Notes under the pieces: generated by a model
The model's database searches: none
What the model was told of the DNA's origin: nothing
Seen by the model: only the letters and a program-made list of their open reading frames with translations
Translations under genes and position numbers: made by a program
NCBI GenBank assembly: GCA_964545795.1
Contig: CAZJGC010000004.1
Location: 1 to 56,779, forward strand
Direction: 5' to 3'
DNA length: 56,779 nt
DNA from: an uncultured archaeon
GTDB taxonomy: Archaea; Aenigmatarchaeota; Aenigmatarchaeia; Aenigmatarchaeales; DAIDAN01
In this document: positions 35,753-56,779 of the stretch, piece after piece
Layout: the number at the start of each line of letters is the position of its first letter
Numbering within the stretch: position 1 is the stretch's first letter

Positions 35753-35787
35753 TAAACCTTTTTTAATCTCCCAGACCATCTTTATTT
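35753..35787 (+). promoter_or_regulatory. Conserved BRE/TATA-like leader shared by all four pilin cassettes
   Basis: AAACCTTTTTTAATC-C-rich-ACCATCTWTATTT-ATG, repeated with few changes before 39368, 41838 and 56272. Confidence 0.7.
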
Positions 35788-36798
35788 ATGAAAGCAATAT
35801 CCGCAATAATAGTTGTTGTTCTCTTGTTGCTAATTTCCATTTCTCTAATCTCTGTTGTTTATGTATGGTCTTCTGCCCTTACAGGAACAGTGACATCAAC
35901 AACAGAGGAGACAACATCAGAACTTACAAAGCAGTTGTCAGGCTGTTTGAAGATAGATGCAATATCCAAAAACCAGATATACTTAAGAAACTGCGGAAAA
36001 GGCGTTATCACAAACAATTCATTGTCGGTATTCATAGATGACGTGAAGGTGGGACACTCTGTTGAAGAGATAGGAGAAGACCAGACAGGAACAGTAAACA
36101 TATCAGGTTTGTGGAAGTTTTCCATGGACAGGCACAACCTGAAATTAACAAACGGGGCTGCCTTTGTCCAAGCACTGATAGAACTGGAGCCTAACAAAGA
36201 TGGTCTGGTTGGTTATTGGGATTTTGACGAAGGTTCAGGCAACAAAGTTTATGACAAGTCAGGGAATGGAAATGACGGCGAACTTAAGAATGGTGTAGTC
36301 TGGACAGCAGGAAAGTTTGGCTCTGCTTTGAGTTTTGACGGAACAGATGATTATGTTGATGCGGGAACAGGAATAAATATTGCCAGCAAGAGTTTTAGTT
36401 TAGTTGCATGGGCAAAAAGAGATTCTATTGATACAGTTGATTATATATTTGGTCAGGGAACTACAAGTACTAATCATGGTTTGCATTTTGGATTTAGAAG
36501 CACTAATGTATTTACATTTGCTTTTTATTATAACGATTTAGATACTCCAAATGCATATACAGACAACAACTGGCATTTATGGGTAGGAACTTATGATGCA
36601 ACTACAAATGAAAGAAAAATATACAGGGATGGAGTTCTTGTTGCAAGCGATACTGCATCAGCAGATTATCAGGGAACAGGGACATTATACATAGGAAGAG
36701 CGACATGGGGAGACTATTTTGATGGAACAATAGACGAAGTCCGGATCTGGAACAAAGCCTTAACTCCAGACCAGACAGTTGTTATGAAAATGGTTTGA
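35788..36798 (+). CDS. Pilin-anchored LamG/ConA-like lectin domain protein, cassette copy 1
   Basis: MKA|ISAII class III signal; LVGYWDFDEGSG..YDKSGNGNDG; ALSFDGTDDYV; FDGTIDEVRIWNKALT. Confidence 0.9.
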   Translation: MKAISAIIVVVLLLLISISLISVVYVWSSALTGTVTSTTEETTSELTKQLSGCLKIDAISKNQIYLRNCGKGVITNNSLSVFIDDVKVGHSVEEIGEDQTGTVNISGLWKFSMDRHNLKLTNGAAFVQALIELEPNKDGLVGYWDFDEGSGNKVYDKSGNGNDGELKNGVVWTAGKFGSALSFDGTDDYVDAGTGINIASKSFSLVAWAKRDSIDTVDYIFGQGTTSTNHGLHFGFRSTNVFTFAFYYNDLDTPNAYTDNNWHLWVGTYDATTNERKIYRDGVLVASDTASADYQGTGTLYIGRATWGDYFDGTIDEVRIWNKALTPDQTVVMKMV

Positions 36799-36842
36799 AG
36801 TTGTAGCAACGTTTTAAATATTTTATAAATAATTAATTAAGT

Positions 36843-37589
36843 ATGAGAAATGAAAAAAATCTTATTCCTATGCTTGCGATTTTAATGGCTGTTGCATTTT
36901 TGCTTGGCATGTTTTCGTCATCTTATTTTTTAAAAAACAGATATGTTGTAACTCTATACAATGTAAAGGAAGTTGCGCGGGATAATTCAAGCGCTGAAAT
37001 ATTCCTGCCTGCAATAGACAATGATGGAAACGGCGTTGTGTTGAAACTTTCTGTTTTTGCCAAACCTGGCAACAATGAGATATTGACAAATATAGACAAA
37101 CTCCTGTTCTGGACTGATACTCAACAGTCTATACAAATAGCAAGGGATATAGCAAAAAATTTTACAAATACATGTTGCTTTGATATTGTTTATAAAATAG
37201 ATGATACTAATGCTACAGTTGTCGGTGGGCCTTCAGCGGGTGCAGCATTTGCAATAGCAACAATATCTGCTTTTAGCGGCAAAGAATTGAATAAGTCTGT
37301 TGCCATAACAGGAACAATAAATCCTGATGGAAGCATAGGGCAGGTAGGAGGCGTTAAAGAGAAGGCTGAAGCCGCAAAAAAGCATGGAATAAAACTTTTT
37401 CTTGTGCCTGAAGGGCAGTCAGTTGAAAAGCGCCTGAAACCTGTTGAGAAATGCATAGAAAGAGAAAGTTTTTCATATTGCGAAATAAGATATAAAGAAG
37501 TGGAAACAAACATATCAGAGGCAGTGGGAATAGACATAAGAGAAGTTAAAAATATAAACGAGGCGGCAAAATATTTTTTCAGTGATTGA
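36843..37589 (+). CDS. Membrane-anchored Lon_C (S16) serine protease
   Basis: GGPSAG catalytic Ser; ITGTINPDGSIGQVGGVKEKAEAA with catalytic Lys. Confidence 0.88.
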   Translation: MRNEKNLIPMLAILMAVAFLLGMFSSSYFLKNRYVVTLYNVKEVARDNSSAEIFLPAIDNDGNGVVLKLSVFAKPGNNEILTNIDKLLFWTDTQQSIQIARDIAKNFTNTCCFDIVYKIDDTNATVVGGPSAGAAFAIATISAFSGKELNKSVAITGTINPDGSIGQVGGVKEKAEAAKKHGIKLFLVPEGQSVEKRLKPVEKCIERESFSYCEIRYKEVETNISEAVGIDIREVKNINEAAKYFFSD

Positions 37590-37590
37590 T

Positions 37591-37905
37591 ATGGAAGCAA
37601 AAATTTTAGTTCTTGTTATAGTACTTTTCCTTATAGGAACTCTTTCTTATCAGTTGTTGGAAGGCTGGACATGGATTGATTCATTATATTTTTCCGTAAC
37701 AACTCTTACAACAATTGGTTATGGAGATTTGCATCCTACAAATGACGTATCAAAAATATTTACGATATTTTATGTGATTGCGGGCATATCCATAGTTCTT
37801 TATGTTCTTTCAAACCTTCGTCAGGATTTCATAAAAATTGAAGAAAGAATAGAGAGGCATATCAGAAAGAGTCAGTATAATGCAAAGAGAGGAAATAGGA
37901 AATGA
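37591..37905 (+). CDS. Two-TM potassium channel (Ion_trans_2)
   Basis: TLTTIGYGD selectivity filter between two TM helices. Confidence 0.92.
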   Translation: MEAKILVLVIVLFLIGTLSYQLLEGWTWIDSLYFSVTTLTTIGYGDLHPTNDVSKIFTIFYVIAGISIVLYVLSNLRQDFIKIEERIERHIRKSQYNAKRGNRK

Positions 37906-38513
37906 CAATAAAAATTATAGGCACATCTCATATTTCTGCCAAAAGCATTAAAGAGGTTGAAGAAACAATTTCAAATACAAAACCATCCTGCGTTGCGGTT
38001 GAATTGTGTCCTGCAAGATTTTATGCGCTTAGTTCAGGCAGGCGGGAAAAAACCGGATTTAGACATGGGGCGCTTATATGGCTTTTTTCATGGCTTCAGA
38101 AAAAACTTGGAGAACAGACAGGCATACTCCCAGGAAGCGAGATGCTTGCTGCTGTTAAAACTGGGAAAAAAATTGGCGCAAAAATAGTTCTTATAGACAA
38201 GAACATAGAAGATATAATTTTATCTCTCAAAAAAATTCCTGTTAAGGAAAAAGTTAAACTCTTTTTAAGTTTGTTTTTAATGCCTTTTGCAGCAAAGATA
38301 AAGAGCACTGAAATAACAGAAGATATTATTGATGATTTGTTAAAGGAAATGAAAAGGCACTTCCCTGTTCTATACAAAGTATTGGTTCATGACAGGAATA
38401 TATATATGGCAAAATGGGCGAGGCGGCTTGAAAAAGAGTTTGGAGATGTTGTTATTGTTGTGGGTCTTGGGCATAAAAAGGGTATTGAAAAGATATTGCT
38501 TAAAGATAAATAG
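37902..38513 (+). CDS. TraB/PrgY family protein
   Basis: IIGTSHIS, VAVELC..R, PGSEM..A, LVHDRN.YM, VVGLGH..GI. Confidence 0.88.
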   Translation: MTIKIIGTSHISAKSIKEVEETISNTKPSCVAVELCPARFYALSSGRREKTGFRHGALIWLFSWLQKKLGEQTGILPGSEMLAAVKTGKKIGAKIVLIDKNIEDIILSLKKIPVKEKVKLFLSLFLMPFAAKIKSTEITEDIIDDLLKEMKRHFPVLYKVLVHDRNIYMAKWARRLEKEFGDVVIVVGLGHKKGIEKILLKDK

Positions 38514-38533
38514 ATTTGCCTGTACATAAAAAT

Positions 38534-38752
38534 ATGGTAAAAGATAAAGAATCAGTTTATGTGGATTGTGCAATCAAAGGACGGTATTGCCTGTGGCGCG
38601 AATTCAGTCCGTGTTCATGCCCTCTGATAGCAGAAAAAATAAATAGCGGAACGCCTGAGATTCAATGCATTGTATTTGACATAAATTTATTGGATAATGG
38701 GGCTAATGTTAGATATTATGGATTTAATAAAATTAAAAAATATAAAATATAG
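38534..38752 (+). CDS. Small Cys-containing hypothetical protein
   Basis: Fills the gap between co-oriented genes; no recognised motif. Confidence 0.35.
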   Translation: MVKDKESVYVDCAIKGRYCLWREFSPCSCPLIAEKINSGTPEIQCIVFDINLLDNGANVRYYGFNKIKKYKI

Positions 38753-38768
38753 AAGGATAGGGTAGGGT

Positions 38769-39320
38769 ATGAGATTCGGAATTAATGAAATGCGGGATTT
38801 GTGCATATCTGTGCTTGTTCTTGGTTTTGCATTTAATCTTGCTTTTACTTCTGGAAGCATTTATTTTCTTCCTGCAACTATTTTTATTGTTGCTGTTGTT
38901 TTTGCTTTGCATGAACTTGGGCATAAGTTTACTGCTCAGAAATTTGGATGTTTTGCTGAATATAGAATGTGGCCATATGGTCTTGTTATAGCTCTGGTTT
39001 TTTCATTTTTTGGAGTTATTTTTGCTGCTCCTGGCGCTGTTTATATTTCCTGTCTGCATCTGACAAGAAGACAGAATGGTTTAATAAGCTTGTCCGGGCC
39101 TGCTGTTAATATTCTGTTAGGCTTTTTGTTTCTGTTATTGTCATGGGTTTATGCGCCATTATCTGCAATTTTCCTGCTTACAGCAAGAATATCAGTTTTT
39201 CTTGCATTTTTTAACCTTATTCCCTTTAGTCCATTGGATGGTTCAAAAATTTTTGCATGGGATAGAAATGTCTGGATAATTGCTGTGATTTTGTCAGTTC
39301 TTGGTTTAATTATTATATGA
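38769..39320 (+). CDS. Site-2 protease (M50) family membrane metalloprotease
   Basis: HELGH, SGPAVN, FNLIPFSPLDG. Confidence 0.92.
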   Translation: MRFGINEMRDLCISVLVLGFAFNLAFTSGSIYFLPATIFIVAVVFALHELGHKFTAQKFGCFAEYRMWPYGLVIALVFSFFGVIFAAPGAVYISCLHLTRRQNGLISLSGPAVNILLGFLFLLLSWVYAPLSAIFLLTARISVFLAFFNLIPFSPLDGSKIFAWDRNVWIIAVILSVLGLIII

Positions 39321-39367
39321 AATAATTATCCATAAACCTTTTTTAATCCCACAAACTATCTATATTT

Positions 39368-40327
39368 ATGAAAGCAATCTCCGCAATAATAGTTGTTGTT
39401 CTTTTATTGTTAATTTCCATTTCTCTAATCTCTGTTGTTTATGTATGGTCTTCTGCCCTTACAGGAACAGTAACATCAACAACAGAGGAAACAGCCACAA
39501 GAGTTACTGAAAGTTCGGCAGGAGTTATAAGAGTAGATTCTGTTCACGGGCATAGCATTTATCTAAAAAATATTGGAACAGGAGATTTATCGGATATCAG
39601 GATTTTTATAGATGATAATCCGGTAATTGTATCAAAAATTCTTGTTGAGGGCATTGAAGCAGATAAAATTCCTGAAGGAAAATTAGGCGAGGTTGTAATT
39701 AATGTTACAGGAGTGCCCATAAACGATAGAATGAAATTGAAAGTGTTGGCGTCTGGTTCTGCTTCGCAAACAGTTTTTATAGAACCAATGGAAAATCTTA
39801 TTGACAATCCTGGTTTTGAGGATGGTGTTTGGAGTAATGCTGGGGATTGCTGCTGCGGAGCATGTTCTTGTAATGGCGGAACATGCACATCAATTCCCGG
39901 AGGTTCAGGATGCGGAAGTTATGCAATACCTCCTTCTGGCGGTTGCAATGCTTTGTTTACAGCATTTACAGCCGGCGGTTACGAGGGAAAATCACTAAAT
40001 CTTACAGGAGCAAATGCCTGCGCCTGCAATGCAATGGGCATGAATAATTTCCAACCCGGAAAAACGTATACACTTAGTTTCAGGTATAAACATATTCGCG
40101 GCAATGGCGCATGGTTCTGCGTATGGGTGTCAGGATGCAATAACTGCAAACCTGTGATTCCAACTGGAACATTAACATCAACTTCATGGGATAGTTATAC
40201 TATCACTTTCAAGCCAGAACCATGCACTACCAATTTGAGTCCATTTTTTTATTCAGGGGGCACATCTGAAGTATCTGAAAATCTTTATGACAATATATAT
40301 TTGATAGAAGGGTTTAGAATGGCTTAG
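39368..40327 (+). CDS. Pilin cassette copy 2 with a Cys-rich carbohydrate-binding-like head
   Basis: First ~42 codons shared with the other copies; then a different stalk and NLIDNPGFE...YTLSFRYK...YDNI (CBM4/9-like) with 14 Cys. Confidence 0.82.
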   Translation: MKAISAIIVVVLLLLISISLISVVYVWSSALTGTVTSTTEETATRVTESSAGVIRVDSVHGHSIYLKNIGTGDLSDIRIFIDDNPVIVSKILVEGIEADKIPEGKLGEVVINVTGVPINDRMKLKVLASGSASQTVFIEPMENLIDNPGFEDGVWSNAGDCCCGACSCNGGTCTSIPGGSGCGSYAIPPSGGCNALFTAFTAGGYEGKSLNLTGANACACNAMGMNNFQPGKTYTLSFRYKHIRGNGAWFCVWVSGCNNCKPVIPTGTLTSTSWDSYTITFKPEPCTTNLSPFFYSGGTSEVSENLYDNIYLIEGFRMA

Positions 40328-40335
40328 GTGATTTT

Positions 40336-40830
40336 GTGAACGATATTTATGAAAATTATGGTATCAGGCAAAAGAGTTATAAAAAACAGGTTTTGGTTTT
40401 GATAGCAGTTGTTTTTTTAGTATTTTTCTTGTTTCTCTTGTTAAAAGGAAAAAATATTGAAACCAACCAAGCAGAAGCATTTGAGCGCAATGCAAGCCAT
40501 GCTACGAACTATGCTGTGAATAGCAGTTCTGAGTCAGGGGTTTCTGGTTCAGAAATTAATTTTTCTTATCAGTATATAAATAATGAATTTGTTTTTTATG
40601 TTAATAGCAGCAGGGCAGTAAGCACTATAGAAGTGTTTATTGATGGAGATAAAATAAATTATAATATTGTGGATGGAAAGTTGCCTATGCAGGAAGACAG
40701 TTCAGTAACTTTTAAAATAGATAAGCAGATGTGCGATAAAGAGCATGAAGTCAAACTTAAAACAGAGTTTTCAGAAAACAAGATAATTACAGAACCTCTT
40801 GTTTGCGCAAATCTTATAGCAAAGAAGTAA
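40336..40830 (+). CDS. Membrane-anchored hypothetical protein
   Basis: GGTGA RBS, GTG start, single TM, beta-rich C-terminus. Confidence 0.65.
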   Translation: MNDIYENYGIRQKSYKKQVLVLIAVVFLVFFLFLLLKGKNIETNQAEAFERNASHATNYAVNSSSESGVSGSEINFSYQYINNEFVFYVNSSRAVSTIEVFIDGDKINYNIVDGKLPMQEDSSVTFKIDKQMCDKEHEVKLKTEFSENKIITEPLVCANLIAKK

Positions 40831-40833
40831 GAT

Positions 40834-41754
40834 TTATTTTAATTCTTCTTTTAGCGCAGATACAATTAAAGGAAATGCTATTGTGGCGTCGCAGTAGACA
40901 GTTGCTGTTTTTGCCTTTTCTTTTACTTTGCCCCATGATATTCCTTCTTCTAAAGTTGCTCCAGACAATCCTCCCCAATGCGGAGAGTCAGTGGTTATCT
41001 GCACAAGATAATCATGGGGTTTTTCTGGAAGAAGTGCTGATTGTATTGCATAATTTTTTGGCACTCCTCCGCCAAGTATAATTATGCCTGTTCTTTTTTT
41101 TGCTGAGCGAAGTTCATACATATAGTCAAATATTTTTGTCAGGTCTTTAATTTCATTTATTCTCAAATCATGGTCTTGCTGGTGCATCCATATCTGAAAT
41201 CCAAGAATGCTGTCGCTTATTGCAGGACAATATATTGGAATATTCTTTTTTGCAGCAGTGCCGACTATGGAATTTTTGTCTTTTATTTTCTTGCCTATTT
41301 TGTAAATTAATTCTGAAGGAGTTAATTCTCCTGTTATTTCTGAAAGAATTTTTTGCATTTCTCTTTCAAAAGTAATGGATGAACTGTCGGGAGATACAAT
41401 ATCATATATTCTTGAGGAGTGTTTTTTTCTTAATTCAATATCGCTTTCTCCATGCCAGTACAAGTATTCCTCTCCAAAGGCATTTGCTAAGTCATGGGTT
41501 AGATTTGCGCCTGTTGAAATAATTGCCTGAACCCAGTTGTTTTTTATGCATTCTGATATGCAATTTCTAAGGCCTGCCGGGACAATTGCGCCTGACAAAG
41601 TGAGAATTGTATCGCATTTTTTATCAGTAATCATCTGTTTGCATATTTCATATGCTTCTCCAAGTTTTCTTGCCTGAAATGCTCCTGCAGCAAATTGATT
41701 AAGTATTTGAGATGCTGTTTGTTTTTTTGGTTGGAACGGTTTTATTGATTTCAT
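40834..41754 (-). CDS. dys: Deoxyhypusine synthase
   Basis: ISTGANLTHD, CPAISDS, LGGGVPKN, GGLSGATLEEGISWGKV, DATIAFP. Confidence 0.93.
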   Translation of the reverse strand: MKSIKPFQPKKQTASQILNQFAAGAFQARKLGEAYEICKQMITDKKCDTILTLSGAIVPAGLRNCISECIKNNWVQAIISTGANLTHDLANAFGEEYLYWHGESDIELRKKHSSRIYDIVSPDSSSITFEREMQKILSEITGELTPSELIYKIGKKIKDKNSIVGTAAKKNIPIYCPAISDSILGFQIWMHQQDHDLRINEIKDLTKIFDYMYELRSAKKRTGIIILGGGVPKNYAIQSALLPEKPHDYLVQITTDSPHWGGLSGATLEEGISWGKVKEKAKTATVYCDATIAFPLIVSALKEELK

Positions 41755-41837
41755 AAATAGAACTTGTTATATGTGTTTAAATAATTTTGTTGAAATAAAT
41801 AAGAAACCTTTTTTAATCTCCCAAACCATCTATATTT

Positions 41838-42873
41838 ATGAAAGCAATCTCTGCAATAATAGTTGTTGTTCTCTTATTGCTAATTTCCATTTCTCTAATC
41901 TCTGTTGTTTATGTATGGTCTTCTGCCCTTACAGGAACAGTGACATCAACAACAGAGGAAACAACATCAGAACTTACAAAGCAGTTGTCAGGTTGTTTGA
42001 AAATAGATGCAATATCCAAAAACCAGATATACTTGAGAAACTGCGGAAAAGGCGTTATCACAAACAATTCATTGTCGGTATTCATAGATGACGTGAAGGT
42101 GGGACACTCTGTTGAAGAGATAGGAGAAGACCAGACAGGAACAGTAAACATATCAGGTTTGTGGCAGTTTTCCCTTAGTACACACAACCTGAAATTAACA
42201 AACGGAGCAGCCTTTGTCCAAGCCCTTATAGAACTGGAGCCTAATAAAGACGGTCTGGTTGGATACTGGAGTTTTGACGAAGGTTCAGGCAATAAAATTT
42301 ATGACAAATCAGGGAATGGAAATGATGGAAGTCTTCTGCCATCAGGTTCAGGACCAATATGGACAGCAGGAAAGTTTGGCTCTGCTTTGCAGTTTGACGG
42401 AACAGATGATTATGTGAATAGTTCAAAACAGGTAGATTTTGATTTAAATTCTCATGACATTACTCTGTCTGTCTGGATAAAACCGGAATATAGATTAGTT
42501 AATCCTTCGTGGGCAAGTTGGCAAATTGTTGGAAGATGGGCATATTTGGCTTTAGGTATTGCAGGTTCTTCAACTAATATTAAAATTGGAATGTATTTGA
42601 ATGGCTTTGCAACATGGTATTCTATTGGCAACAAATGGAGCCAATGGATTCATATTGTTTCAGTTTATCACAAAGCTTCTAATTTAAGAGATCTGTATTT
42701 AGATGGCAGATACATTGCAACTGACAATACCTGGTAATTCTGGAGATTATACAGGTTATATGGTTGTTGGTAAAAACAATTATAATGACGTTCCGTATGG
42801 CATAATAGACGAAGTCCGGATCTGGAACCGCGCATTGACGCCAGACCAGACAGTTGTTATGAAAATGGTTTGA
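41838..42873 (+). pseudogene. Pilin-LamG cassette copy 3, frameshifted near 42725
   Basis: ORF stops at 42737, but the conserved C-terminus IDEVRIWNRALTPDQTVVMKMV* continues in the +1 frame to 42873. Confidence 0.82.
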
Positions 42874-42895
42874 TATAAGTTAAGAACAGCAAAAA

Positions 42896-43300
42896 TTATT
42901 TGCTCTTTATCTGCACCAATATTCTTTTTCCCATGACGTCCCAGTAAAGAACCTCAGCCCCTTGAGTAATATGAGATTTTAATTCTTCTGGAATTGGGGA
43001 TTCAAATGTTTCATATGTTTCCATGTCCATTAGTTGAGCAGTTTCACCCATTAATGCAACAACCTGAGCAGACTTTTTTTCAATAATAGGCACATCTATT
43101 GGCGCGTCAGCAGGTTTTACTATGCTTCTTTTTTTGTTGTCAAAAAGCCCTATTGCATCAAGCCTTGCTTTTGCTGCTCCGTGTTTGCCTGAAACAGAAG
43201 TTGTAACAGACAAAACCTTGCATGGCTCGCCTTCTATTATGCAATACCTTCCCGGCTTCAAAGCTTTGATAGCTGTTTTTGTTGTTGCCATTTTTACCAT
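42896..43300 (-). CDS. eif5a: Translation factor aIF-5A
   Basis: SGKHGAAK hypusine loop; QLMDMETYETFE; start may be 43291. Confidence 0.95.
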   Translation of the reverse strand: MVKMATTKTAIKALKPGRYCIIEGEPCKVLSVTTSVSGKHGAAKARLDAIGLFDNKKRSIVKPADAPIDVPIIEKKSAQVVALMGETAQLMDMETYETFESPIPEELKSHITQGAEVLYWDVMGKRILVQIKSK

Positions 43301-43330
43301 CTTATAAATAAAGTATTATATTTAAATAGT

Positions 43331-43928: not shown

Positions 43929-43978
43929 AATAAAAAATACCTAAAATAATAAATTGTAATTATAAAAGGTGATATAAA

Positions 43979-45756: not shown

Positions 45757-45882
45757 GCAGGGATAGCAAAGCCAGGTAATGCGCCAGCCTGGAAAATTAT
45801 GGCAGTGAGCTGGTTTCCGTCAAGGATGCGTGAGTGAGTCTTTAAAAAGGCTCCATGATTTCAAATCTCACTCCCTGCGCCA
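45757..45882 (+). tRNA. tRNA-Ser(GGA) with two introns (37/38 and 53/54)
   Basis: GCAGGGA/TCCCTGC-G-CCA; CCAGC-CT-GGA-AA-GCTGG; long variable arm; inserts 45795-45807 and 45835-45859; usual position after tuf-rps10. Confidence 0.88.
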
Positions 45883-48377: not shown

Positions 48378-49283
48378 ATGAACAAGGAACTTCTTGAAAA
48401 GCAAAAATATAAAATTGTAGGAAGGCACAGTGCTGTGAAGCTTTGCTTATGGACAAAGGAATCTATAAAGACAGGAGGCGCAAAGCATTGTTATAAGCAG
48501 AAATTTTATCCGGACATTGTAAAAAGCCATTTGTGCATGCAATGCACTCCTGCTGTTTCATGGTGCACGCTTCGTTGTCAATATTGCTGGAGACCTGTTG
48601 CCGATACAACTACAGGAGCAGGTATGGGAGATGAAGATGAGCCTGTAACAATAATAGAGGACATGATAAAATCCCAAAGGCAGTTGCTTTCGGGTTTGGG
48701 AGGAGTTCCGCATTCTGAGAAACTTTTGAAAGAAGCGAACAATCCAAAAAATGTTGCATTATCATTGTCAGGAGAGCCCTTTTGCTATTCAAGAATAGGC
48801 GAATTAATTAGGGAGTTTCACAGGAGAAAAATGACAACATTTGTGGTTACAAATGGCACTTTTCCTGAAAGAGTTGAATCGCTTGATGAACTGCCTGTGC
48901 AATTTTATGTTTCTCTATGTTCAAATTCAAAGGAAATGTTTAAGAAAGTTCATAGTCCTTTGATAAATGACGGCTGGGAAAGATTAATGAAAACATTAGA
49001 GATATTCAGCGGTTTGAAGACAAGAACTGTTGTGAGGTTGACTCTTGCAAGACATCTTAATTTCTCAAAACCCGATGAATATGCAAAACTTATAAGGAAG
49101 GCGTCCCCAAGATTTGTTGAAATAAAGGCTGCAATGCCTGTTGGTTTTGCAAGCTACAGAATGCAATACAACCAGATGTTAAGGCATGAGGAAATAAAGG
49201 AATTTTCTGAACTTATTGCAAAAGAATCCGGATATGAGATTGTTAATGAGAAAAAAGATAGCAGAGTTGTTCTTCTTCAGTAA
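48378..49283 (+). CDS. taw1: 4-demethylwyosine synthase (radical SAM)
   Basis: HSAVKLCLWT, CYKQKFY, CTLRCQYCWR, LSLSGEP, VTNGT. Confidence 0.93.
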   Translation: MNKELLEKQKYKIVGRHSAVKLCLWTKESIKTGGAKHCYKQKFYPDIVKSHLCMQCTPAVSWCTLRCQYCWRPVADTTTGAGMGDEDEPVTIIEDMIKSQRQLLSGLGGVPHSEKLLKEANNPKNVALSLSGEPFCYSRIGELIREFHRRKMTTFVVTNGTFPERVESLDELPVQFYVSLCSNSKEMFKKVHSPLINDGWERLMKTLEIFSGLKTRTVVRLTLARHLNFSKPDEYAKLIRKASPRFVEIKAAMPVGFASYRMQYNQMLRHEEIKEFSELIAKESGYEIVNEKKDSRVVLLQ

Positions 49284-49849
49284 ACATTTATTTTTAATGT
49301 TGTCGTATCTTCTGAAACTCTCTCTCTTTCTATTTCTATGTTTTTTCCAACAAGTTTTTCAGGGCTGTAAAAATTTACAAAAAGAACGCCTTTAGGCATT
49401 AAGTCATAGTTCTTTGTTCCCGAAACGCTTGTAATTTTTATGTTTCCTTCCATTAGGATTACATCATTCTTTGGATACAACCATCTTAACTGATAAACAA
49501 CTCCGGATATGCACCTTTGCCACACTTGTTTGTCTCTTTCAACTAACGACCAGTCATGTTCGCTGCATATTACGTTGTTGCTTGAAACAGTATAATATAT
49601 TCCGTCTTTTTTGACTTCAAGTTGACCTTTTGATATTGATATAAAACATTTGTTTATTGAACCTGTTCTTGCTGTTTCAAGGATTTTGTCATTGCACTTT
49701 AACATGTCTGCTTTCACTGATTCTATTTCTGACAATTCCAGTGAAGAATGAATAGATTTGTATGTCCATGGAACAACTGATAATATAACTCCGATACTGA
49801 TTACTGCTATCATTGCTGCCTGCAGCAGCATGCTAAGCGCTTTTTTCAT
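49277..49849 (-). CDS. Type IV pilin-like protein (class III signal peptide)
   Basis: MKKA|LSMLL followed by a hydrophobic helix ending PW. Confidence 0.65.
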   Translation of the reverse strand: MKKALSMLLQAAMIAVISIGVILSVVPWTYKSIHSSLELSEIESVKADMLKCNDKILETARTGSINKCFISISKGQLEVKKDGIYYTVSSNNVICSEHDWSLVERDKQVWQRCISGVVYQLRWLYPKNDVILMEGNIKITSVSGTKNYDLMPKGVLFVNFYSPEKLVGKNIEIERERVSEDTTTLKINVY

Positions 49850-50010
49850 AAAATAAAATGAAATCTTTATTATAAAAAGTTTTTTATCTAATGTAAAAGA
49901 TGCTCTTCAATGCAGATATGCATAAGATTTATAAATAAGTTTATTGAAATTAAAGATAAGAACATGTTTATTAAACACTTTAAAATAAATAAAATAAGAG
50001 GGGTGTAAAA

Positions 50011-50661
50011 ATGGTAGTGAGTCTGGAGGCAATGCTTTTAGGTTTATGGGCAATCTTGATAGAAAGCATACCTGGCGTGGTTGGTGCTACTTTAACGCTT
50101 GTTATAGGTTTTATAATAGGCAAGATAGCAGGCAAGATAGTAAAAGAAATTCTTGTAAGGTCAAATGTAGATAGTTATGTATCCAAGACCGACCATCTAA
50201 ATATAGAACTTTCTAAAATTGGTGCTCTTGTGACAAAATGGATAATATATCTTGTATTCATAGAACAGGCATTCTTGTTCTTGGGAGTTACAGCAATAAC
50301 AGATTTTATAGGAGTTGTCGTTGCTTATATCTCGCAGGTAATATTCGCATCTGTTGCCATATTGATAGGATATTCTCTGGCAGTTTATTTCAAGGACAAA
50401 ATAGTAACATCAAGGACGCTCTATTCTGACATAGTTGGTAAGACAGTGTTCTTCCTTATAGTCTATTTATCCATAGCAATAGGACTAAAGTTTATAACAG
50501 TATTAAATACAACAATAATAGATTACTTGCTGCTGATAATAGTGGCTTCTGTTGGTTTGGGTTTGGCAATTGCATTGGGTCTTGGATTAAAAGATGTAGT
50601 AGCAGCAGCAGCAAGCGACTTTGTAAAAAAGAAGACAATAAAGGCTGTAAGGAAGAAATAA
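50011..50661 (+). CDS. Conserved TM-helix repeat membrane protein (CmpX/MscS-associated type)
   Basis: IPGVVGA..L..G.IIGK; second repeat ISQVIFASVAILIG; C-terminal GLAIALGLG.KD. Confidence 0.75.
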   Translation: MVVSLEAMLLGLWAILIESIPGVVGATLTLVIGFIIGKIAGKIVKEILVRSNVDSYVSKTDHLNIELSKIGALVTKWIIYLVFIEQAFLFLGVTAITDFIGVVVAYISQVIFASVAILIGYSLAVYFKDKIVTSRTLYSDIVGKTVFFLIVYLSIAIGLKFITVLNTTIIDYLLLIIVASVGLGLAIALGLGLKDVVAAAASDFVKKKTIKAVRKK

Positions 50662-50687
50662 ATGGGAACTTTTGTTCCCATTTTTTT
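50660..50687 (+). terminator. Hairpin plus T-tract
   Basis: AAATGGGAAC-TTTT-GTTCCCATTT followed by Ts. Confidence 0.65.
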
Positions 50688-50719
50688 AACTTTTTAAATA
50701 CTGACATCAATTTTAAAAT

Positions 50720-51094
50720 ATGGAAATACTTCAATATTTGAATTATCTGCCATTGAATGGCGAAGTTGTTTTTCTTGCTGTTTCTACTTTATTGACAGGG
50801 GGCATAATTTATTTTTGGATGAGATTTTATCATGAACCGCCCCATCCATTTCATGCACTGCTTGTTGGGTTTATAGCAAATTTTCAGAATTTTGTTATAC
50901 CATTTCTTGTTTTGTATCTGCCAATACCTTACGTATTTCAGGTTGCGCCTATTCTGTTTTGGATACTGATTATAAGAATATTTTATTTGGATATTGGCTG
51001 GAAACATGTTATTGCCATAAGCCTGCTTTCCTATGGCACGTTTGCTTTGCTTGAAATTTCCGGTGTTATCGGAATTATATATTCAATGCTCTAA
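50720..51094 (+). CDS. Small polytopic membrane protein
   Basis: Four hydrophobic segments. Confidence 0.65.
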   Translation: MEILQYLNYLPLNGEVVFLAVSTLLTGGIIYFWMRFYHEPPHPFHALLVGFIANFQNFVIPFLVLYLPIPYVFQVAPILFWILIIRIFYLDIGWKHVIAISLLSYGTFALLEISGVIGIIYSML

Positions 51095-51131
51095 AGTTAG
51101 AAAGAAATATTAGAAAATTAATAATAAAAGT

Positions 51132-51992
51132 ATGAAAACTGTTATTGATGTTCTTACAGGGAGAGAGTTGCAGGTAAGTGAGAACGAACTTATGTTTATG
51201 GAATGCAGGACAGATGGTTATATATTGTCAATACCGCATGCAGGAACATTTGTTCCCAAAAAGATAGCGCATAAATTATGGATAGGAAAACAGATGCTTT
51301 TAAGGACAGATATGTATACTGATGCTGTTTATGACACAGGCAAAGGCATTAAGGTTGTTTCTAATATAAACAAACATGTTATGAATGCGAACAGATTTAA
51401 AAATCCTGACTTTGAGTTGCTTCCGCCTAATCTGAGAAACGGCGTATTTTATTCTAAAGTCGGGGGATTTCTTAGACAGGAATATACTTCCAAAGAAAAA
51501 ACGGAGATTATTGGCTTGTATGAAAAGTATAATAGTTTTATCAGAAAGGCAATTAATCAAATGAAGAAAAAACATGGTTTTGCATTGTTATTTGATTGTC
51601 ATTCAATGAATTCTATTGGTCTTAAAGGCGCAGTTGATGAAGGAAAAGTCAGACCTGATTTTGATATAGGAACAGTGAATGATGCAAGCGCGCACTGCAA
51701 ATTAATAGAATGTTTTTGCAGAATATTAAAATCGGAAGCTGAAACATTTGGGTTTTCTGTCAGAAAAAATTATCCTTATTCTGGCGGTGCAATCATAAGA
51801 AAGTATGGTTGCCCTTCAAAAAATGTTCATGCTATACAGATAGAAATTAAAAAGTCAATTTATATGGATGAGGAGTTAAATACAAGAAGAAGGAAATTCA
51901 GGAGAAAACCTGATAGAATAAAAAAACTGAATAAAATAATGACCAATGTATTTAAAGCAGTTTCTGATGAGGCAAAACAATTGTTAATGTAA
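51132..51992 (+). CDS. N-formylglutamate amidohydrolase family protein
   Basis: SIPHAG, TDMYTD, NANR, FDCHSM, RPDFDIG, NYPYSGG, HAIQIEI. Confidence 0.9.
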   Translation: MKTVIDVLTGRELQVSENELMFMECRTDGYILSIPHAGTFVPKKIAHKLWIGKQMLLRTDMYTDAVYDTGKGIKVVSNINKHVMNANRFKNPDFELLPPNLRNGVFYSKVGGFLRQEYTSKEKTEIIGLYEKYNSFIRKAINQMKKKHGFALLFDCHSMNSIGLKGAVDEGKVRPDFDIGTVNDASAHCKLIECFCRILKSEAETFGFSVRKNYPYSGGAIIRKYGCPSKNVHAIQIEIKKSIYMDEELNTRRRKFRRKPDRIKKLNKIMTNVFKAVSDEAKQLLM

Positions 51993-51994
51993 AA

Positions 51995-52696
51995 TTATCT
52001 TCCAAACCTTCTTTTCCTTTTTTCAAAATCTTTCAATGCCTTGAAAAAATCTTTTTTTGTTATTTCAGGCCACATCTTGTCAATAAAAAATAGTTCGCTG
52101 TATGCGCACTGCCATAATAGAAAATTGGAGAGCCTTTTTTCCCCGCCTGTTCTTATTATCATGTCAGGATATGGAATGTCTCCTGCATACAAATTTTTTC
52201 TTATAAGGTTTTCGTTTATCTGCTTTGTTTTTATTTTGTTGGCGGCAACATCTTTTGCAATCTTTCTTACAGCGTCCGTTATTTCTTCCTGACCGCCATA
52301 GGCTAATGCCAGATTAAGAAAATAATTGTTATAGTTTTTTGTTGCATTTTCTGCAGATTTTATGGCATCCCTGACATTTTTTGGCAGCAGGTTTATTCTG
52401 CCAATAACATTTACCTTTATGCCATATTCATGCACTTCGTGGTCAGGCTTTGCTATTTCTTTAAATTCCCTTTCAAACAGTTTCATAAGAAATTCAAATT
52501 CCTTTTTTGGACGCTCCATGTTTTGTATTGAGAATGAGTAAAGAGTTATATAATGCAGTTTTTTTTCACTGCACCATTTCATAAGTTCTCTTACCTTTTT
52601 TGCTCCCCAATTGTGCCCTTCCCATGGTTTTTTCATAAGCCTTTTTGCAAAACGGCGATTGCCGTCAAGAATTATGGCAACATGTTGAGGCATCAT
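51995..52696 (-). CDS. uppS: cis-prenyltransferase (undecaprenyl/polyprenyl diphosphate synthase)
   Basis: PQHVAIILDGNRR, YSFS..N..R, YGGQEEI, PDMIIRTGGEKRLSNFLLWQ. Confidence 0.95.
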   Translation of the reverse strand: MMPQHVAIILDGNRRFAKRLMKKPWEGHNWGAKKVRELMKWCSEKKLHYITLYSFSIQNMERPKKEFEFLMKLFEREFKEIAKPDHEVHEYGIKVNVIGRINLLPKNVRDAIKSAENATKNYNNYFLNLALAYGGQEEITDAVRKIAKDVAANKIKTKQINENLIRKNLYAGDIPYPDMIIRTGGEKRLSNFLLWQCAYSELFFIDKMWPEITKKDFFKALKDFEKRKRRFGR

Positions 52697-52756
52697 TTTA
52701 TCACTATTTCTTATATTAAAAAATATATTTAAAAGTTTTTACTAAATAAGGTTTAT

Positions 52757-53590
52757 ATGTTTGAATTTCTTGCTTTGATAATTGCGCTGGTTGGCGGAAC
52801 AATATGCGGTTTGTATGATTTGAAGACAACAAACATGCTTGACTGGCTTGCAGTGCTTATGATAATTTCTGGGTTTGTTCTGGCAGGTGCAGAAAGTTTT
52901 GTTTCTGGTTCACTCGCTCCTTTGCTTTTCTCATTTTCTGTTGCAGGCGCTTTTTTCATTTTCGGTTTTTTTATGTATAAAGCCGGGTATTGGGGCGGCG
53001 GAGACGGAGAATTGCTCATAGCTTTGGGTGCGCTTGTTCCTGTTAATCCCTTTATTTCCGTATCTTTCGGAATTTATGGATTTGTTTTTGCTTTGAACTT
53101 CCTGATTAACAGTTTTATAATAGGCGGAATTTATTCTATTTTATATGCAGTTGTTATTGCAATGCATGATAAAAAGGTCAGAACAACTTTTTATAAACGC
53201 ATTAAAGATGTTAGATTTCTATTGGCTTTAACATTTCTGGTTTTTTTAGCAGTTGGGTTGTCCGTTAGTTATTTTCTGCCTTTTTACATATACTTTAGTT
53301 TGCTTTTGGTTGTTTTATTGCCTGTTTTGTATGTGTTTGCAAAAACCGTTGAAGAAGTTGGATTTAATAAAAAAATACATGTTTCTAAACTTAAAGTAGA
53401 TGATGTAATTGGTGAGGATTTGCCTGAGTTAAATATCTTTAAGAAAGAAATAAGGGGTTTGACGCAGGAAGAAGTTCGCAAAATCAAGAAAAACAGGAAA
53501 TATGTTATTGTCAGAGACGGGGTAAGATATTCGCCTGTGTTTGTAATATCATTGGCTTTCACTTTAATCTTCGGAGGATTCTTGCTTTAG
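52757..53590 (+). CDS. Prepilin/preflagellin peptidase (A24)
   Basis: YDLKT, WGGGDG aspartyl motif, multiple TMs, C-terminal VRYSPVF. Confidence 0.85.
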   Translation: MFEFLALIIALVGGTICGLYDLKTTNMLDWLAVLMIISGFVLAGAESFVSGSLAPLLFSFSVAGAFFIFGFFMYKAGYWGGGDGELLIALGALVPVNPFISVSFGIYGFVFALNFLINSFIIGGIYSILYAVVIAMHDKKVRTTFYKRIKDVRFLLALTFLVFLAVGLSVSYFLPFYIYFSLLLVVLLPVLYVFAKTVEEVGFNKKIHVSKLKVDDVIGEDLPELNIFKKEIRGLTQEEVRKIKKNRKYVIVRDGVRYSPVFVISLAFTLIFGGFLL

Positions 53591-53609
53591 GAGAAACAGC
53601 AGCGAATTT

Positions 53610-54263
53610 TCATATTTTTTCTATTTTTATTCCTGAATCAAAGATTTCATATGGATATATTTTTTCTGAATGCGGTGAACCGCGCATCTTTCTTATATGC
53701 AGGTTTTTTAATAATTTGTGATTTGATTTCTTCATTTCAAGAAGGATAACTGCGTCTGATATGAATTCTTCAACTCCGTGTATTGAGAGAGATTTTGAAT
53801 GCAATGCCGCTTCGCTTGTAAGAATTGTTGTGCATTTATTTCTTTTCAGCATATGGCTGATTTTGCTTAAAGCAAATCTTGCTTCATGTTTTTCCAGCAT
53901 TTTTAATATGTCCACGCTGTCTATTGTGATGATTTCTATGTTAAATGATTTTACTGCAAATTCTATGTCTTTTATAATGCTGTATGCTGATATTGGAGAA
54001 ATATCCGCAAATATGATTTTTTTGGTTTTTATAAGTTCCCGCAGTTTCTGAAATCTTGGCAAAAAGTTTTTTATAACATTTCTTGATTTTGTTGAAATAA
54101 ACATGCATTTTTTGCCTGTTAATGCATTTTTGTAAAGGCATTGGAGAGCAAAGGTTGTTTTTCCTGAACCAATTGTTCCGGAAACAAGAATAAGCGAGTT
54201 TTTTATAAATCCGCCGTTTAGCAGATTATCCAGATTGTCTATGCCTGAAGTTATTCTTTCCAT
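53610..54263 (-). CDS. KaiC/RAD55-like RecA-superfamily ATPase
   Basis: ITSGIDNLDNLLNGG, SGTIGSGKT, IDSV, EFISDAVI.L, IRKMRGS.H; likely start ATG 54263. Confidence 0.88.
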   Translation of the reverse strand: MERITSGIDNLDNLLNGGFIKNSLILVSGTIGSGKTTFALQCLYKNALTGKKCMFISTKSRNVIKNFLPRFQKLRELIKTKKIIFADISPISAYSIIKDIEFAVKSFNIEIITIDSVDILKMLEKHEARFALSKISHMLKRNKCTTILTSEAALHSKSLSIHGVEEFISDAVILLEMKKSNHKLLKNLHIRKMRGSPHSEKIYPYEIFDSGIKIEKI

Positions 54264-54341
54264 GCTAAGATATTCATCAGAGAAGTATATAAAAATTAAC
54301 GAATAATAAGTATTTATAAATTTATTTTTGAATAAAATGTT

Positions 54342-55328
54342 ATGTCTATATTGATAGAAGAGCATGCTATTGAGAAGATAGGCGAAGTATGCAGAAGTCT
54401 TGGCGGGAATGCTCTGATAGTTTCAGGCAAGACAACAATTAAAATTGCCGGAAACAAGGTATGCGATGTGCTCTCTGGTTATAACACAGAGATTGTAATA
54501 ACAGAATCAATATTAAAGAAAGATGCAGATGAAATAGAAATTGGCAATAGTGATTTTATTGTAGGGGTTGGAGGAGGGCGTGTTATAGATGTTGCCAAAT
54601 ATGTTGCATACAAGCATAACAAGCCCTTTGTTTCTGTTCCTACTGTGTTGTCGCATGACGGAATTTCTTCTCCAAGAGCTACGCTTGACGGCAATACTGG
54701 GAAACTGTCCTATAAGGCTGTTGCTCCTGTGAGCGTGATATGTGATTTGTCCATAATTTCAGATGCTCCTTACAGAATGAATGCTTCAGGATGCGCTGAT
54801 GTAATATCAAATATAACTGCTGTTGAGGACTGGAAAATGTCTCCTGAAGATTTTAATGAAGATTCTGCAAAAAAGTCGTTGGATGCTGCAAATAGAGTTT
54901 TGTCTTCCATTGATTTAATAAGGGGCAATAATCCCGCTGGCCTGAAAAACCTTGCCGAAGCTATTATAGAGAGCGGAGTTGCAATGGATATGGCTGGTTC
55001 AAGCAGGCCTGCAAGCGGCGGAGAGCATCTAATTTCGCATGCTATTGATAGATTATATCCAGGCAGATGTTTTCATGGAGAGGTATGCGGTGTTGGCAGC
55101 ATAATGACTGCGTATTTGCATGGCATTGATTGGGAAGAAATAAGGTCGGCTCTCAAAAGACTGAAGTGTCCTGTAAACGCGTCAGAACTCGGGGTTCCTG
55201 AGGATATTTTAATAAAGGCAATTGTTCTTGGAAAGGATATAAGGAATGACAGATATACTATATTGCATAAAAAACAGTTAAATATTAAAGAAGCAGAAGA
55301 ATTAGCTAGGATAACAGAAGTTATATAA
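54342..55328 (+). CDS. egsA: sn-glycerol-1-phosphate dehydrogenase
   Basis: GVGGGRVIDVAK, VPTVLSHDGISS, SSRPASGGEHLISHAID, HGE.CG. Confidence 0.92.
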   Translation: MSILIEEHAIEKIGEVCRSLGGNALIVSGKTTIKIAGNKVCDVLSGYNTEIVITESILKKDADEIEIGNSDFIVGVGGGRVIDVAKYVAYKHNKPFVSVPTVLSHDGISSPRATLDGNTGKLSYKAVAPVSVICDLSIISDAPYRMNASGCADVISNITAVEDWKMSPEDFNEDSAKKSLDAANRVLSSIDLIRGNNPAGLKNLAEAIIESGVAMDMAGSSRPASGGEHLISHAIDRLYPGRCFHGEVCGVGSIMTAYLHGIDWEEIRSALKRLKCPVNASELGVPEDILIKAIVLGKDIRNDRYTILHKKQLNIKEAEELARITEVI

Positions 55329-55360
55329 AAAGATAAATTAAGTTTTAATTATGTGATTCT

Positions 55361-56116
55361 ATGCCGCATGAGCCATGGAGAAAGTGGAAGCATATAACGA
55401 AGCTTGACCCCGACAGAAAAATATGCGCTGATGTAATAAGGCAAATTGTAGATACAGAAACAGATGCTATTATGATTTCAGGCACCCAGAACATAAACAA
55501 AAGCAATGTGAAACAACTTATAGATTTGTTAAAGGAATATGATATTCCCAAAGTTCTTGAACCTGCTCATCCTGCCTGCCTTACATACAAACATATAGAT
55601 TATATTTTTGTGCCTTCTGTGTTCAATACAGATAGGGCTTTATGGATTAACGGTCTTCATAAGAAATGGGTAAAGGAAGATAAAAACATAGATTGGGATA
55701 TTGTTGTTCCCGAAGCTTATATTATTCTTAATCCAAAATGCGCTGCTGCAAAAGTTTCTGGTGCAAAAGTTCTGGATAAAGAAGATGCTGTTGCTGCTGC
55801 TGTGTGCGCAGAGCGTTTTTTTAAGTTTCCAATAATTTATATTGAATATAGCGGTGTTTATGGTGATGTTGAAGTTGTTAAAGCCATAAAAGAGTCATTA
55901 ACAACAGCGCATCTTATATATGGGGGAGGAATTAATACAAGAAAAAAGGCAGAAGAAATGAGCATGTATGCTACAATAGTTGTTGGCAATACAATATATG
56001 AAAAAGGGACGGATAGTTTTGCGGACACAATGTATGGAACTCTTTCTCAGCAGATGAGTGTTTTGAAACAGAAGTTGAAGAAGATAAAGGAAATGAAAAG
56101 AAAGAAACAGAAATAA
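55361..56116 (+). CDS. pcrB: Geranylgeranylglyceryl phosphate synthase (PcrB/group I GGGPS)
   Basis: WKHITKLDPD, DAIMISGT, EAYIILNP, IYIEYSG, YGGGI, IVVGN. Confidence 0.9.
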   Translation: MPHEPWRKWKHITKLDPDRKICADVIRQIVDTETDAIMISGTQNINKSNVKQLIDLLKEYDIPKVLEPAHPACLTYKHIDYIFVPSVFNTDRALWINGLHKKWVKEDKNIDWDIVVPEAYIILNPKCAAAKVSGAKVLDKEDAVAAAVCAERFFKFPIIYIEYSGVYGDVEVVKAIKESLTTAHLIYGGGINTRKKAEEMSMYATIVVGNTIYEKGTDSFADTMYGTLSQQMSVLKQKLKKIKEMKRKKQK

Positions 56117-56195
56117 GGGATTGCTAACCCTTATCAACCCTTAAGGAAGAGCATAAAAAACGGGGCTGTTCAAAACACGCAACCCCTTATTTTGT

Positions 56196-56224
56196 CAGGA
56201 TTTCAAATCACAGCGGACCCACCA
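56196..56224 (+). other. Orphan tRNA 3' fragment (T-loop to CCA)
   Basis: TTCAAAT-CACAG-CGGACCC-A-CCA has the register of tRNA positions 54-76; no matching 5' half found nearby. Confidence 0.65.
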
Positions 56225-56271
56225 ATCCTGTTGGCGAAAATCTTTTTTAATCCCCCAAACCATCTATATTT

Positions 56272-56779
56272 ATGAAAGCAATCTCCGCAATAATAGTTGT
56301 TGTTCTCTTGTTGCTAATTTCCATTTCGCTAATCTCTGTTGTTTATGTATGGTCTTCTGCCCTGACAGGAACAGTGACATCAACAACAGAGGAAACAACA
56401 TCAGAACTGACAAAGCAGTTGTCAGGTTGCCTGAAGATAGATGCAATATCCAAAAACCAGATATACTTGAGAAACTGCGGAAAAGGCGTGATAACAAATA
56501 ATTCATTGTCAGTATTCATAGATGACGTGAAGGTGGAACACTCTGTTGAAGAGATAGGAGAAGACCAGACAGGAACAGTAAACATATCAGGTTTGTGGAA
56601 GTTTTCCATGGACAGGCACAACCTAAAAATAACAAACGGAGCAGCCTTTGTCCAAGCCCTTATAGAGTTGGAGCCTAATAAAGATGGTTTGGTTGGTTAT
56701 TGGAGTTTTGACGAAGGTTCAGGCAATAAAGTTTATGACAAATCAGGGAATGGAAATGATGGCGAACTTAAGAATGGTG
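56272..56779 (+). CDS. Pilin-LamG cassette copy 4 (truncated by window end)
   Basis: Near-identical to 35788 and 41838 from the leader through LVGYWSFDEGSGNKVYDKSGNGNDGELKNG. Confidence 0.9.
   Translation, partial: MKAISAIIVVVLLLLISISLISVVYVWSSALTGTVTSTTEETTSELTKQLSGCLKIDAISKNQIYLRNCGKGVITNNSLSVFIDDVKVEHSVEEIGEDQTGTVNISGLWKFSMDRHNLKITNGAAFVQALIELEPNKDGLVGYWSFDEGSGNKVYDKSGNGNDGELKNG

Follow-up and report, generated by a model that had tools for sequence, protein, structure and literature searches.

The stretch of DNA analyzed here, the 56,779-nucleotide (nt) contig CAZJGC010000004.1 of an uncultured archaeon of the Aenigmatarchaeota (assembly GCA_964545795.1), carries four genes of a dispersed family that numbers at least 16 and is predicted to code for modular pilins. 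Probably, the stalks of these pilins are homogenized by gene conversion, and the heads attached to them form a standing repertoire. This interpretation builds on the observed anatomy of the genes, their copy number, the mosaicism of their constant part, the grouping of the stalks by genome and the geometry of the promoter. Most likely, the repertoire serves for sticking to other cells in a tiny symbiont-type (DPANN) archaeon. The stretch is one whole contig of the source genome (768,421 bases in 29 contigs, about 35% G+C) and is called the window in the following; positions without a contig number refer to it, and C1, C2 and so on denote contigs of the source genome. Loci in the genome collection that are related to it carry the title Candidatus Aenigmatarchaeota. 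The genes of the window are archaeal housekeeping genes, such as those for aIF5A, deoxyhypusine synthase, EF-1 alpha, family B DNA polymerase, geranylgeranylglyceryl phosphate (GGGP) synthase and glycerol-1-phosphate (G1P) dehydrogenase, and the pilin-LamG copies are placed one by one among them.

An earlier note on this DNA had described four same-strand copies with near-identical starts. The four copies were recovered, with ATG codons at 35788, 39368, 41838 and 56272, and a repeat search detected a 300-nt block four times in direct orientation, at 35754, 39334, 41804 and 56238. Compared to copy 1, this block is 70% identical in copy 2, 97% in copy 3 and 94% in copy 4. Copy 2 shares the promoter and about 42 codons only. 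The observation is thus confirmed, and the family to which the four genes belong is genome-wide and not limited to the window. The corresponding features are:

35754-35787, plus strand: predicted promoter box of copy 1, with transcription factor B recognition element (BRE) and TATA element and without a Shine-Dalgarno motif; the homology among the copies begins here.
35788-36798, plus strand: copy 1, an intact predicted modular pilin of 336 amino acids, with Pfam, profile and fold matches and an AlphaFold2 model.
36722-36798, plus strand: 3' constant box of copy 1, comprising the last LamG strand, TPDQTVVMKMV and the stop codon; 90% identical to 42797-42873.
39334-40327, plus strand: copy 2, with the family promoter and the first ~42 codons, a different, Cys-rich head and no 3' box.
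41804-42737, plus strand: copy 3, with promoter and an open reading frame (ORF) of 299 amino acids that stops early by a frameshift.
42739-42873, plus strand: out-of-frame remainder of copy 3, which holds the 3' box 42797-42873; frame +1 reads ...GIIDEVRIWNRALTPDQTVVMKMV and then a stop.
56238-56779, plus strand: copy 4, with promoter and the first 169 codons; it is cut by the contig end and continues on contig C29.

In all copies the homology sets in at one and the same base, with AAA[CT]CTTTTTTAATC, 34 nt 5' of the ATG, and an alignment that includes the flanks finds the DNA 5' of this start unrelated between copies. At about position 35750, the mean pairwise identity in 20-column windows rises from 0.21-0.35 to 0.75-0.98; at about 36354 it falls from 0.98 to 0.41 and then to 0.29. 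The constant 5' part consists of a leader of ~35 nt and about 570 nt up to the codons for FDGTDDYV. The constant 3' part of the family copies comprises the final 35-75 nt and ends at the stop codon. For copies 1 and 3, the earlier note had reported near-identity up to FDGTDDYV, a differing LamG core, renewed convergence and an end of similarity at the stop codon. This description is accurate: the two copies are 91.5% identical over 614 nt, their cores cannot be aligned, identity is 90% over the last 77 nt, and similarity stops at TGA. The repeat search listed the 3' boxes of both copies as a 77-nt repeat and additionally found a 56-nt repeat (36301/42360, 95% identical). In copy 3, the frameshift places the stop of the ORF at 42737 and the conserved tail in the next frame. 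A 470-nt contig of an independent assembly covers this site (42386-42855) with 0 differences, and the 299-residue form is present in another assembly. Copy 4 and the end of contig C29 have an overlap of 55 nt with 100% identity.

The products had been interpreted as pilin-type surface proteins with lectin-type heads, and profile, fold and Pfam matches agree with this. The N-terminus MKA/ISAIIVVVLLLLISISLISVV (M-K-A/I-S-A-I-I-V-V-V-L-L-L-L-I-S-I-S-L-I-S-V-V; the slash marks the predicted cleavage site) conforms to an archaeal class III signal, i.e. a short charged leader whose [KR][GA] cleavage motif lies right in front of about 20 hydrophobic residues. KAIS is the cleavage motif listed for UpsA of S. 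acidocaldarius in the tabulated part of a review (PMC4371748). An AlphaFold2 model of copy 1, calculated from a 19-sequence alignment, reached a predicted local distance difference test score (pLDDT) of 86. It consists of a helix (residues 2-32; 2-50 is the alternative extent among the models), a Thr/Ser-rich linker of ~20 residues (~31-50) with low model confidence, a beta-sandwich (54-135) and a LamG head (140-336). A profile of residues 1-140 matched the type IV pilin of Pyrobaculum calidifontis (8fk7, E 1e-6, positions 2-123) and Iho670 (E 0.011). Foldseek, applied to a separate model of the N module, gave archaeal type IV pili as its best matches, with 6nav ranked first, 8fk7 second and 6w8x fourth, and 8q30 and 8fj5 further down. 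Judged from sequence and model, proteins of the copy 1 type are predicted to be modular archaeal type IV pilins. Two components for processing and assembly are encoded as well: the source genome contains a prepilin peptidase and an assembly ATPase, the latter represented by five matches to PF00437 (PilB-type) above cut-off. The window contributes the peptidase and two further prepilin-like ORFs, in agreement with the earlier note:

52757-53590, plus strand: A24 (FlaK/PibD-type) prepilin peptidase; Pfam PF01478, E 1.7e-9; NCBIfam FlaK_Arch, E 6.8e-12, below cut-off.
35166-35705, minus strand: prepilin-like ORF, divergent from copy 1, with MKAQSE and a hydrophobic helix; weak match to DUF7289, E 0.0093.
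49277-49849, minus strand: prepilin-like ORF with MKKALS and a hydrophobic helix; class III pattern match and no family match.

A KaiC/ArlH-like ATPase of the RecA superfamily (53610-54365, minus strand) is placed divergently beside the peptidase gene.

Further pilin-like genes were noted outside the family. A tandem cluster of six small prepilin genes (145-161 amino acids) lies at C17:6773-9656 on the minus strand. One of its products, a pilin of 150 amino acids encoded at 8725-9177, has nearly the helix of the LamG family and is a candidate for the major pilin of the same filament; this similarity suggests co-assembly. Two larger proteins (C5:29078-31429, 783 amino acids; C18:1-1950, 650 amino acids; both on the minus strand) combine a class III signal and a different helix with Laminin_G_3, and one of them also has FG-GAP repeats. 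The homogenized family is therefore not the only place where lectin-type heads occur on pilin-like anchors.

The heads belong to the Laminin_G_3 family of the concanavalin A (ConA)-like superfamily according to both Pfam and fold. Copy 1 matches PF13385 with E 2.9e-28 and 99.3 bits (cut-off 27.6), and the truncated ORF of copy 3 still yields 27.9 bits. The fold is a ConA-like jelly roll that resembles domain 4 of AbnA, the lectin domain of a trans-sialidase and clostridial Hc-N domains. From copy to copy, the heads differ in length and along the whole sequence; a blastn comparison of heads with each other found their DNA to be unique except for one 61-nt and one 24-nt common piece. Two family members have heads of another type, copy 2 (Cys-rich, with a weak match to CBM_4_9) and C9:7836 (GH16-like, E 3.1e-6). 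The heads may bind glycans, and they may act in adhesive attachment.

The 34-35-nt leader is a predicted leaderless archaeal core promoter, as had been supposed. In copy 1 the family TATA element TTTTTTAA occupies positions -29 to -22 relative to the ATG, and in the family it starts at -29/-27. This position coincides with the genome-wide peak: among 607 other ORFs of at least 150 amino acids, a TATA-like hexamer starts at -30, -29, -28 and -27 in 39, 52, 38 and 28 cases, respectively. A Shine-Dalgarno-like motif precedes only 77 of these 607 ORFs. Related genomes have the same promoter geometry with a different sequence. Upstream of the promoter box, some copies share additional elements. Short GC-rich hairpins (GGGG...CCCC, CCAA...TTGG) precede copy 4 (56100-56237), C21:9084 and C1:81973, and these three copies have ~25 extra nt in common before the box, ..CCCACCAATC.TG.TTGGCGAAAA. 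The hairpin region of copy 4 has no match in Rfam. The copy at the start of C2, copy 2 and the copy at the start of C9 share ATTATCCAT just 5' of the box.

Collecting all genomic copies had been suggested as a check. A blastn search of the source genome yielded 15 family 5' ends and 14 3' boxes; together, the 14 genes with a 3' box and the two with other heads add up to 16 genes as a minimum. Eight of them are complete and the remainder run into contig ends: family members break the assembly, and many contig ends fall inside them. Two broken pairs could be joined by overlap, namely the start of C2 with the end of C3 and the end of the window with C29. The genome contains 13 promoter boxes with at most three mismatches to the majority form, and all 13 intact 5' ends combine promoter and ATG. 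Homology always starts with the promoter and ends, depending on the gene, at codon 5, ~42, ~76 or ~190. At C27:3912, in a gene additional to the 15 family 5' ends, the family box precedes an unrelated small pilin and MKAIS is the sole coding match. In a further copy, on C24, family coding sequence follows a different promoter. The summed contig depth of the constant region is ~1100-1400 compared to 73-83 for the flanks; it would fit 14-18 copies, although summed contig depth is not a copy number. With 16 genes of ~1 kb, roughly 2% of the 0.77-Mb genome is devoted to the family.

The family was found in 25 of 30 related genomes searched (not counting the source genome); two genomes from a sister genus have 34 and 28 matches. 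In a large protein collection, 17 proteins match the N module and none of them is named; literature searches found no paper that describes this pilin-LamG family. In five related genomes, the genes next to copies 1 and 3 could be traced, which code for a Lon-like protease, aIF5A and deoxyhypusine synthase; the deoxyhypusine synthase gene was traced in metagenome contigs too. None of these places has a family copy beside the flanking genes. The gene order around them differs altogether, and the comparison therefore says nothing on insertion.

The constant part of the family is a mosaic. Nine long copies with 603 ungapped columns and 81 informative sites were used for the analysis. The four-gamete test was failed by 1887 of 3240 site pairs, and the minimum number of recombination events (Rmin) is 27, which means that at least 27 events are required. 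The pairwise homoplasy index (PHI) is 0.472 compared to 0.583 +/- 0.015 after permutation, and 0 of 2000 permutations gave a value as low; adjacent sites are thus more compatible than shuffled ones. The 14 genomic copies of the 3' box show hardly any variation in their last 33 nt, synonymous sites included, and NKALT/NRALT blocks are patchily common to copies. Even the out-of-frame tail of copy 3 is identical in 48 of 48 nt to the copy at C1:30293-30340.

Synonymous differences per site (pS) among the copies amount to 0.17 in the helix, 0.26 in the N domain, 0.25 at the start of LamG and 0.65 in the core, the last value stemming from alignments at ~19% identity and meaning mainly that these sites are saturated. 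The ratio of nonsynonymous to synonymous differences (pN/pS) is 0.04-0.09 in helix and N domain. Between the 150-residue C17 pilin and the family, pS is 0.74, i.e. saturated, despite nearly the same helix protein. Selection at the protein level alone does therefore not explain the low pS of the family.

The N modules are 0.97 identical within the source genome, 0.88 and 0.73 within the two sister-genus genomes, and 0.50 between genera. In contrast, head identity is 0.19-0.28 throughout (0.19 within the source genome, 0.19-0.21 between genera). N modules group by genome in trees and heads do not. The pS of the constant part is 0.16-0.22 within a genome versus 0.79-0.85 between genomes. Paralogs are thus closer to each other than orthologs, in part of the gene only, which is partial concerted evolution. 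Mosaic, PHI, low pS and grouping by genome all support the recombination that had been proposed for the constant parts, and the pattern indicates gene conversion combined with purifying selection; we infer conversion as the mechanism.

Only two DNA runs of one study contain the stretch, both as short-word contigs that break in repeats. In three genes compared among three alternative assemblies of the same organism, 1, 4 and 2 amino-acid differences were found, all seven in constant parts and none in a head. The head of copy 3 is one clean contig at 96x, near the 73-83x of the flanks. The summed contig depth of the copy 1 head is 150-300, i.e. 2-4 times that of the flanks, and variant contigs are present; a second near-identical head, or more than one, must therefore exist that the assembly does not include. 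The match between the C13 copy and copy 1 is confined to the distal block of the constant region, where the C13 copy breaks off. Two congeneric genomes have three loci in synteny, at which the flank proteins are 78-90% identical and the heads only 0.14, 0.26 and 0.21. None of these three pairs are best matches of each other (13.9, 28.1 and 19.6 bits versus 31-39 for other pairs in the same rows). In a sample of 10 x 5 heads, a subset of the 34 and 28 matches, no head orthologs were found between the two sister-genus genomes, the best values being 48.9 bits and 0.33 identity. However, pS between the two congeneric genomes is near saturation (0.69-0.72), and at this distance fast divergence in place looks the same as head replacement. 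Neither the mismatch of syntenic heads nor the depth of the copy 1 head separates replacement from fast divergence or plain duplication. An exchange of heads between constant boxes is no more than hinted at.

The following mechanism would account for these findings. Each family gene would be its own transcription unit with a leaderless core promoter. The class III signal MKA/IS of the product would be processed by the A24 peptidase of the window, and the hydrophobic helix would be part of the filament core or serve as a membrane anchor. It would be followed by the Thr/Ser-rich linker, the pilin beta-sandwich and a C-terminal LamG/ConA-like head that differs in every copy. Repeated short-tract conversion between paralogs, together with strong purifying selection, would keep the ends almost identical within the genome, from the promoter through codon ~190 and again over the last ~11-25 codons. 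One common stalk could in this way serve all heads for synthesis, processing and assembly. The heads themselves would lie outside the conversion tracts and be either long diverged or often replaced. The result would be a repertoire of lectin-like adhesins on one pilus system, with which a DPANN episymbiont binds glycans of its host or of surfaces, and not a switch.

The earlier note had drawn an analogy to the pilin variation of Neisseria. In a programmed system of the pilE/pilS kind, heads would be moved via the constant boxes, and the displayed adhesin would change. Constant boxes on both sides of a variable core, patchy variants shared among copies, the likeness of copy 1 and the C13 copy in the last part of the constant region with different sequence upstream, the elevated depth of the copy 1 head and the three non-reciprocal syntenic heads would all suit such a system. 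We nevertheless consider it improbable. All 13 intact 5' ends have promoter and ATG, neither a promoterless cassette nor a single expression site was seen, and moving a head would leave expression unchanged, given the same promoter everywhere. Moreover, head DNA is unique except for two short pieces, copy 3 has a clean head, and the differences between assemblies spare the heads. In a looser form of the idea, the constant ends would act as homology arms, so that whole heads are copied between loci or captured from cells of the population. Hints are the heads at the three syntenic loci, which are unrelated beyond the fold, the elevated depth of the copy 1 head with its variant contigs, the merely distal match of the C13 copy to copy 1, and the 3' box that stays identical even behind the frameshift of copy 3; we regard this form as conceivable, albeit rather unlikely. 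If true, it would amount to reshuffling by ordinary homologous recombination without a dedicated recombinase, and to an archaeal many-locus counterpart of cassette-based surface variation. Alternatively, whole genes might have been duplicated in a recent burst, after which the heads diverged very fast under diversifying selection, with no gene conversion involved. The N modules of the source genome do form one tight clade, and syntenic heads in sister genomes are unrecognizable between flank proteins of 78-90% identity, which fits fast head evolution. However, ~80% amino-acid change and many indels would be needed in the heads versus 0.2 synonymous differences next door; identity falls stepwise within ~20 nt rather than along a gradient; mosaic and PHI require recombination in the constant part; and the source-genome heads are as far from each other as from those of another genus. 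This makes the burst a poor candidate as well. An artefact, be it collapsed or mis-joined repeats of a metagenome bin or variation by a diversity-generating retroelement, is hardly to be expected. It is true that many contigs end inside family members and that the differences between alternative assemblies are confined to constant parts. On the other hand, each copy has unique flanks, and independent contigs confirm the flank-box junctions (one ending at 35783, 36770-39387, 40017-41837 and one starting at 42846), which speaks against the misassembled repeats considered in the earlier note; these short-word contigs do not bridge the 600-nt constant part. Furthermore, the copies differ by 3-10% and are not collapsed, and most related genomes have a many-copy family. 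The earlier note had seen no reverse transcriptase, and this extends to the whole source genome: PF00078 has no match in it (rated 98.67% complete), whereas a control search matched 3 of 14 named genomes. A retroelement is therefore not supported; as its target the heads were also rejected because they differ throughout and in length and not at adenines only.

Several points weigh against stalks homogenized by conversion on a filament. Assembler switching between near-identical repeats could have produced some of the mosaic sites, given that many contigs end in the family; an Rmin of 27 in 603 columns, however, needs breakpoints far below the assembly word length, so that switching is not the whole story. 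The within-genome pS of 0.16-0.26 means that conversion is not frequent relative to mutation. Homogenization is much weaker in the sister genus (pS 0.48-0.64) and thus not obligatory for the family, and the saturated core value mentioned above has to be added. No RNA run is listed that contains the stretch. As to the filament, TM-scores to 6nav, 8fk7 and 6w8x are modest (0.42-0.46), the curated NCBIfam pilin cut-offs were not reached (UpsA 22.5 bits, cut-off 130; UpsB 19.5, cut-off 70), and no Pfam pilin family matched at E <= 0.01. The products may stay anchored in the membrane instead of polymerizing. Class III signals also serve for export and membrane anchoring, as in the sugar-binding proteins of the Sulfolobus bindosome. 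The family could correspondingly consist of surface lectins or enzymes outside any filament, a reading that concerns function only and is compatible with the evolutionary one. The low-confidence linker of 20 residues between helix and globular part, the pilin family matches below cut-off and the six small C17 pilins, which could build a filament alone, are in line with this. Against it, the whole N module, beyond the helix, matches solved archaeal pili by profile and fold, and one C17 pilin has almost the helix of the family, suggesting co-assembly. Non-filament proteins are a real but minor possibility, and we infer that the family would be co-assembled in filaments.

Two further observations in the window do not touch the family. 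A single ORF of 4658 amino acids (1751-15727, plus strand) has an ordinary, signal-like N-terminus, internal repeats of ~1150 nt, and Ig-like and NPCBM-associated domains. Near its C-terminus (residues ~4317-4480) follows a HerA/FtsK-type ATPase domain (DUF87, E 2.1e-12). The fusion of a giant surface protein with a HerA-like ATPase is odd and may represent two genes read through. The sole tRNA call (45757-45879, plus strand) spans 123 nt for a 71-position model and scores 32 bits in Rfam at a gathering score of 29; it was missed by ARAGORN, which called no tRNA in the window. For a CCCACCA-like stretch 5' of copy 4, a tRNA end is not supported, as there is neither an ARAGORN call nor an Rfam match at 56050-56300.

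To our knowledge, host recognition and attachment of DPANN archaea are largely unknown, and almost none of these organisms have been cultured. The family provides a short, concrete list of candidate host-recognition proteins that can be expressed for glycan-array or host-cell tests. At the same time it is a clear archaeal example of partial concerted evolution: the shared assembly module is homogenized, and the binding modules are diverse. It would also extend the idea of modular pilins from bacteria to archaea, at a much larger scale per genome.

One of the closest known designs is found in the modular type IV pilins PilB (vWA module) and PilC (concanavalin A-like lectin module) of S. sanguinis (Raynaud et al. 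2021, PMC8179133). As far as the available text of that paper describes them, these proteins likewise join a class III pilin module via a short linker to a bulky C-terminal binding module; PilC even carries a ConA-like lectin graft, for which adhesion is the proposed role. In contrast, the pilin module described here is archaeal, with helix, beta-sandwich and KAIS site; at least 16 paralogs per genome compare with one or two minor pilins there (according to the same text), and the genes are scattered, have their own promoters and possess stalks homogenized in DNA. The survey in PMC8179133 relied on the bacterial signature IPR012902, and the available main text lacks the word archaea. A survey of archaeal type IV filament systems (PMC13705601) mentions adhesin-like proteins, and LamG is absent from its accessible text. 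Among archaea, the adhesion pilins PilA1-PilA6 of Haloferax volcanii (Esquivel et al. 2013) are similar in that, according to the review sections that cover them (PMC4371748), the hydrophobic domain of the paralogs is almost completely conserved. The same sections state that co-regulation with the genes for pilus biosynthesis is absent, that each of these pilins can use the same machinery, and that their adhesive behavior differs. Here, however, conservation comprises the promoter, ~190 codons and the 3' end, synonymous sites included, each paralog has an extra LamG head, and the family, in a 0.77-Mb genome, is ~3 times as large.

Neisseria pilE/pilS comprises one expressed locus and promoterless silent cassettes, with recombination between copies. 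Constant and variable pilin segments and recombination between copies are common to both systems. In the family, by contrast, there are neither silent promoterless cassettes nor one sole locus for expression, a whole domain varies instead of mini-cassettes, and the assemblies compared give no sign of locus switching. The babA/babB genes of Helicobacter pylori code for bacterial outer-membrane adhesins, paralogs in two or three copies that undergo concerted evolution. With them, the family shares converted 5' and 3' ends around divergent binding regions; in contrast to them, it is archaeal, pilin-type and present in at least 16 copies.

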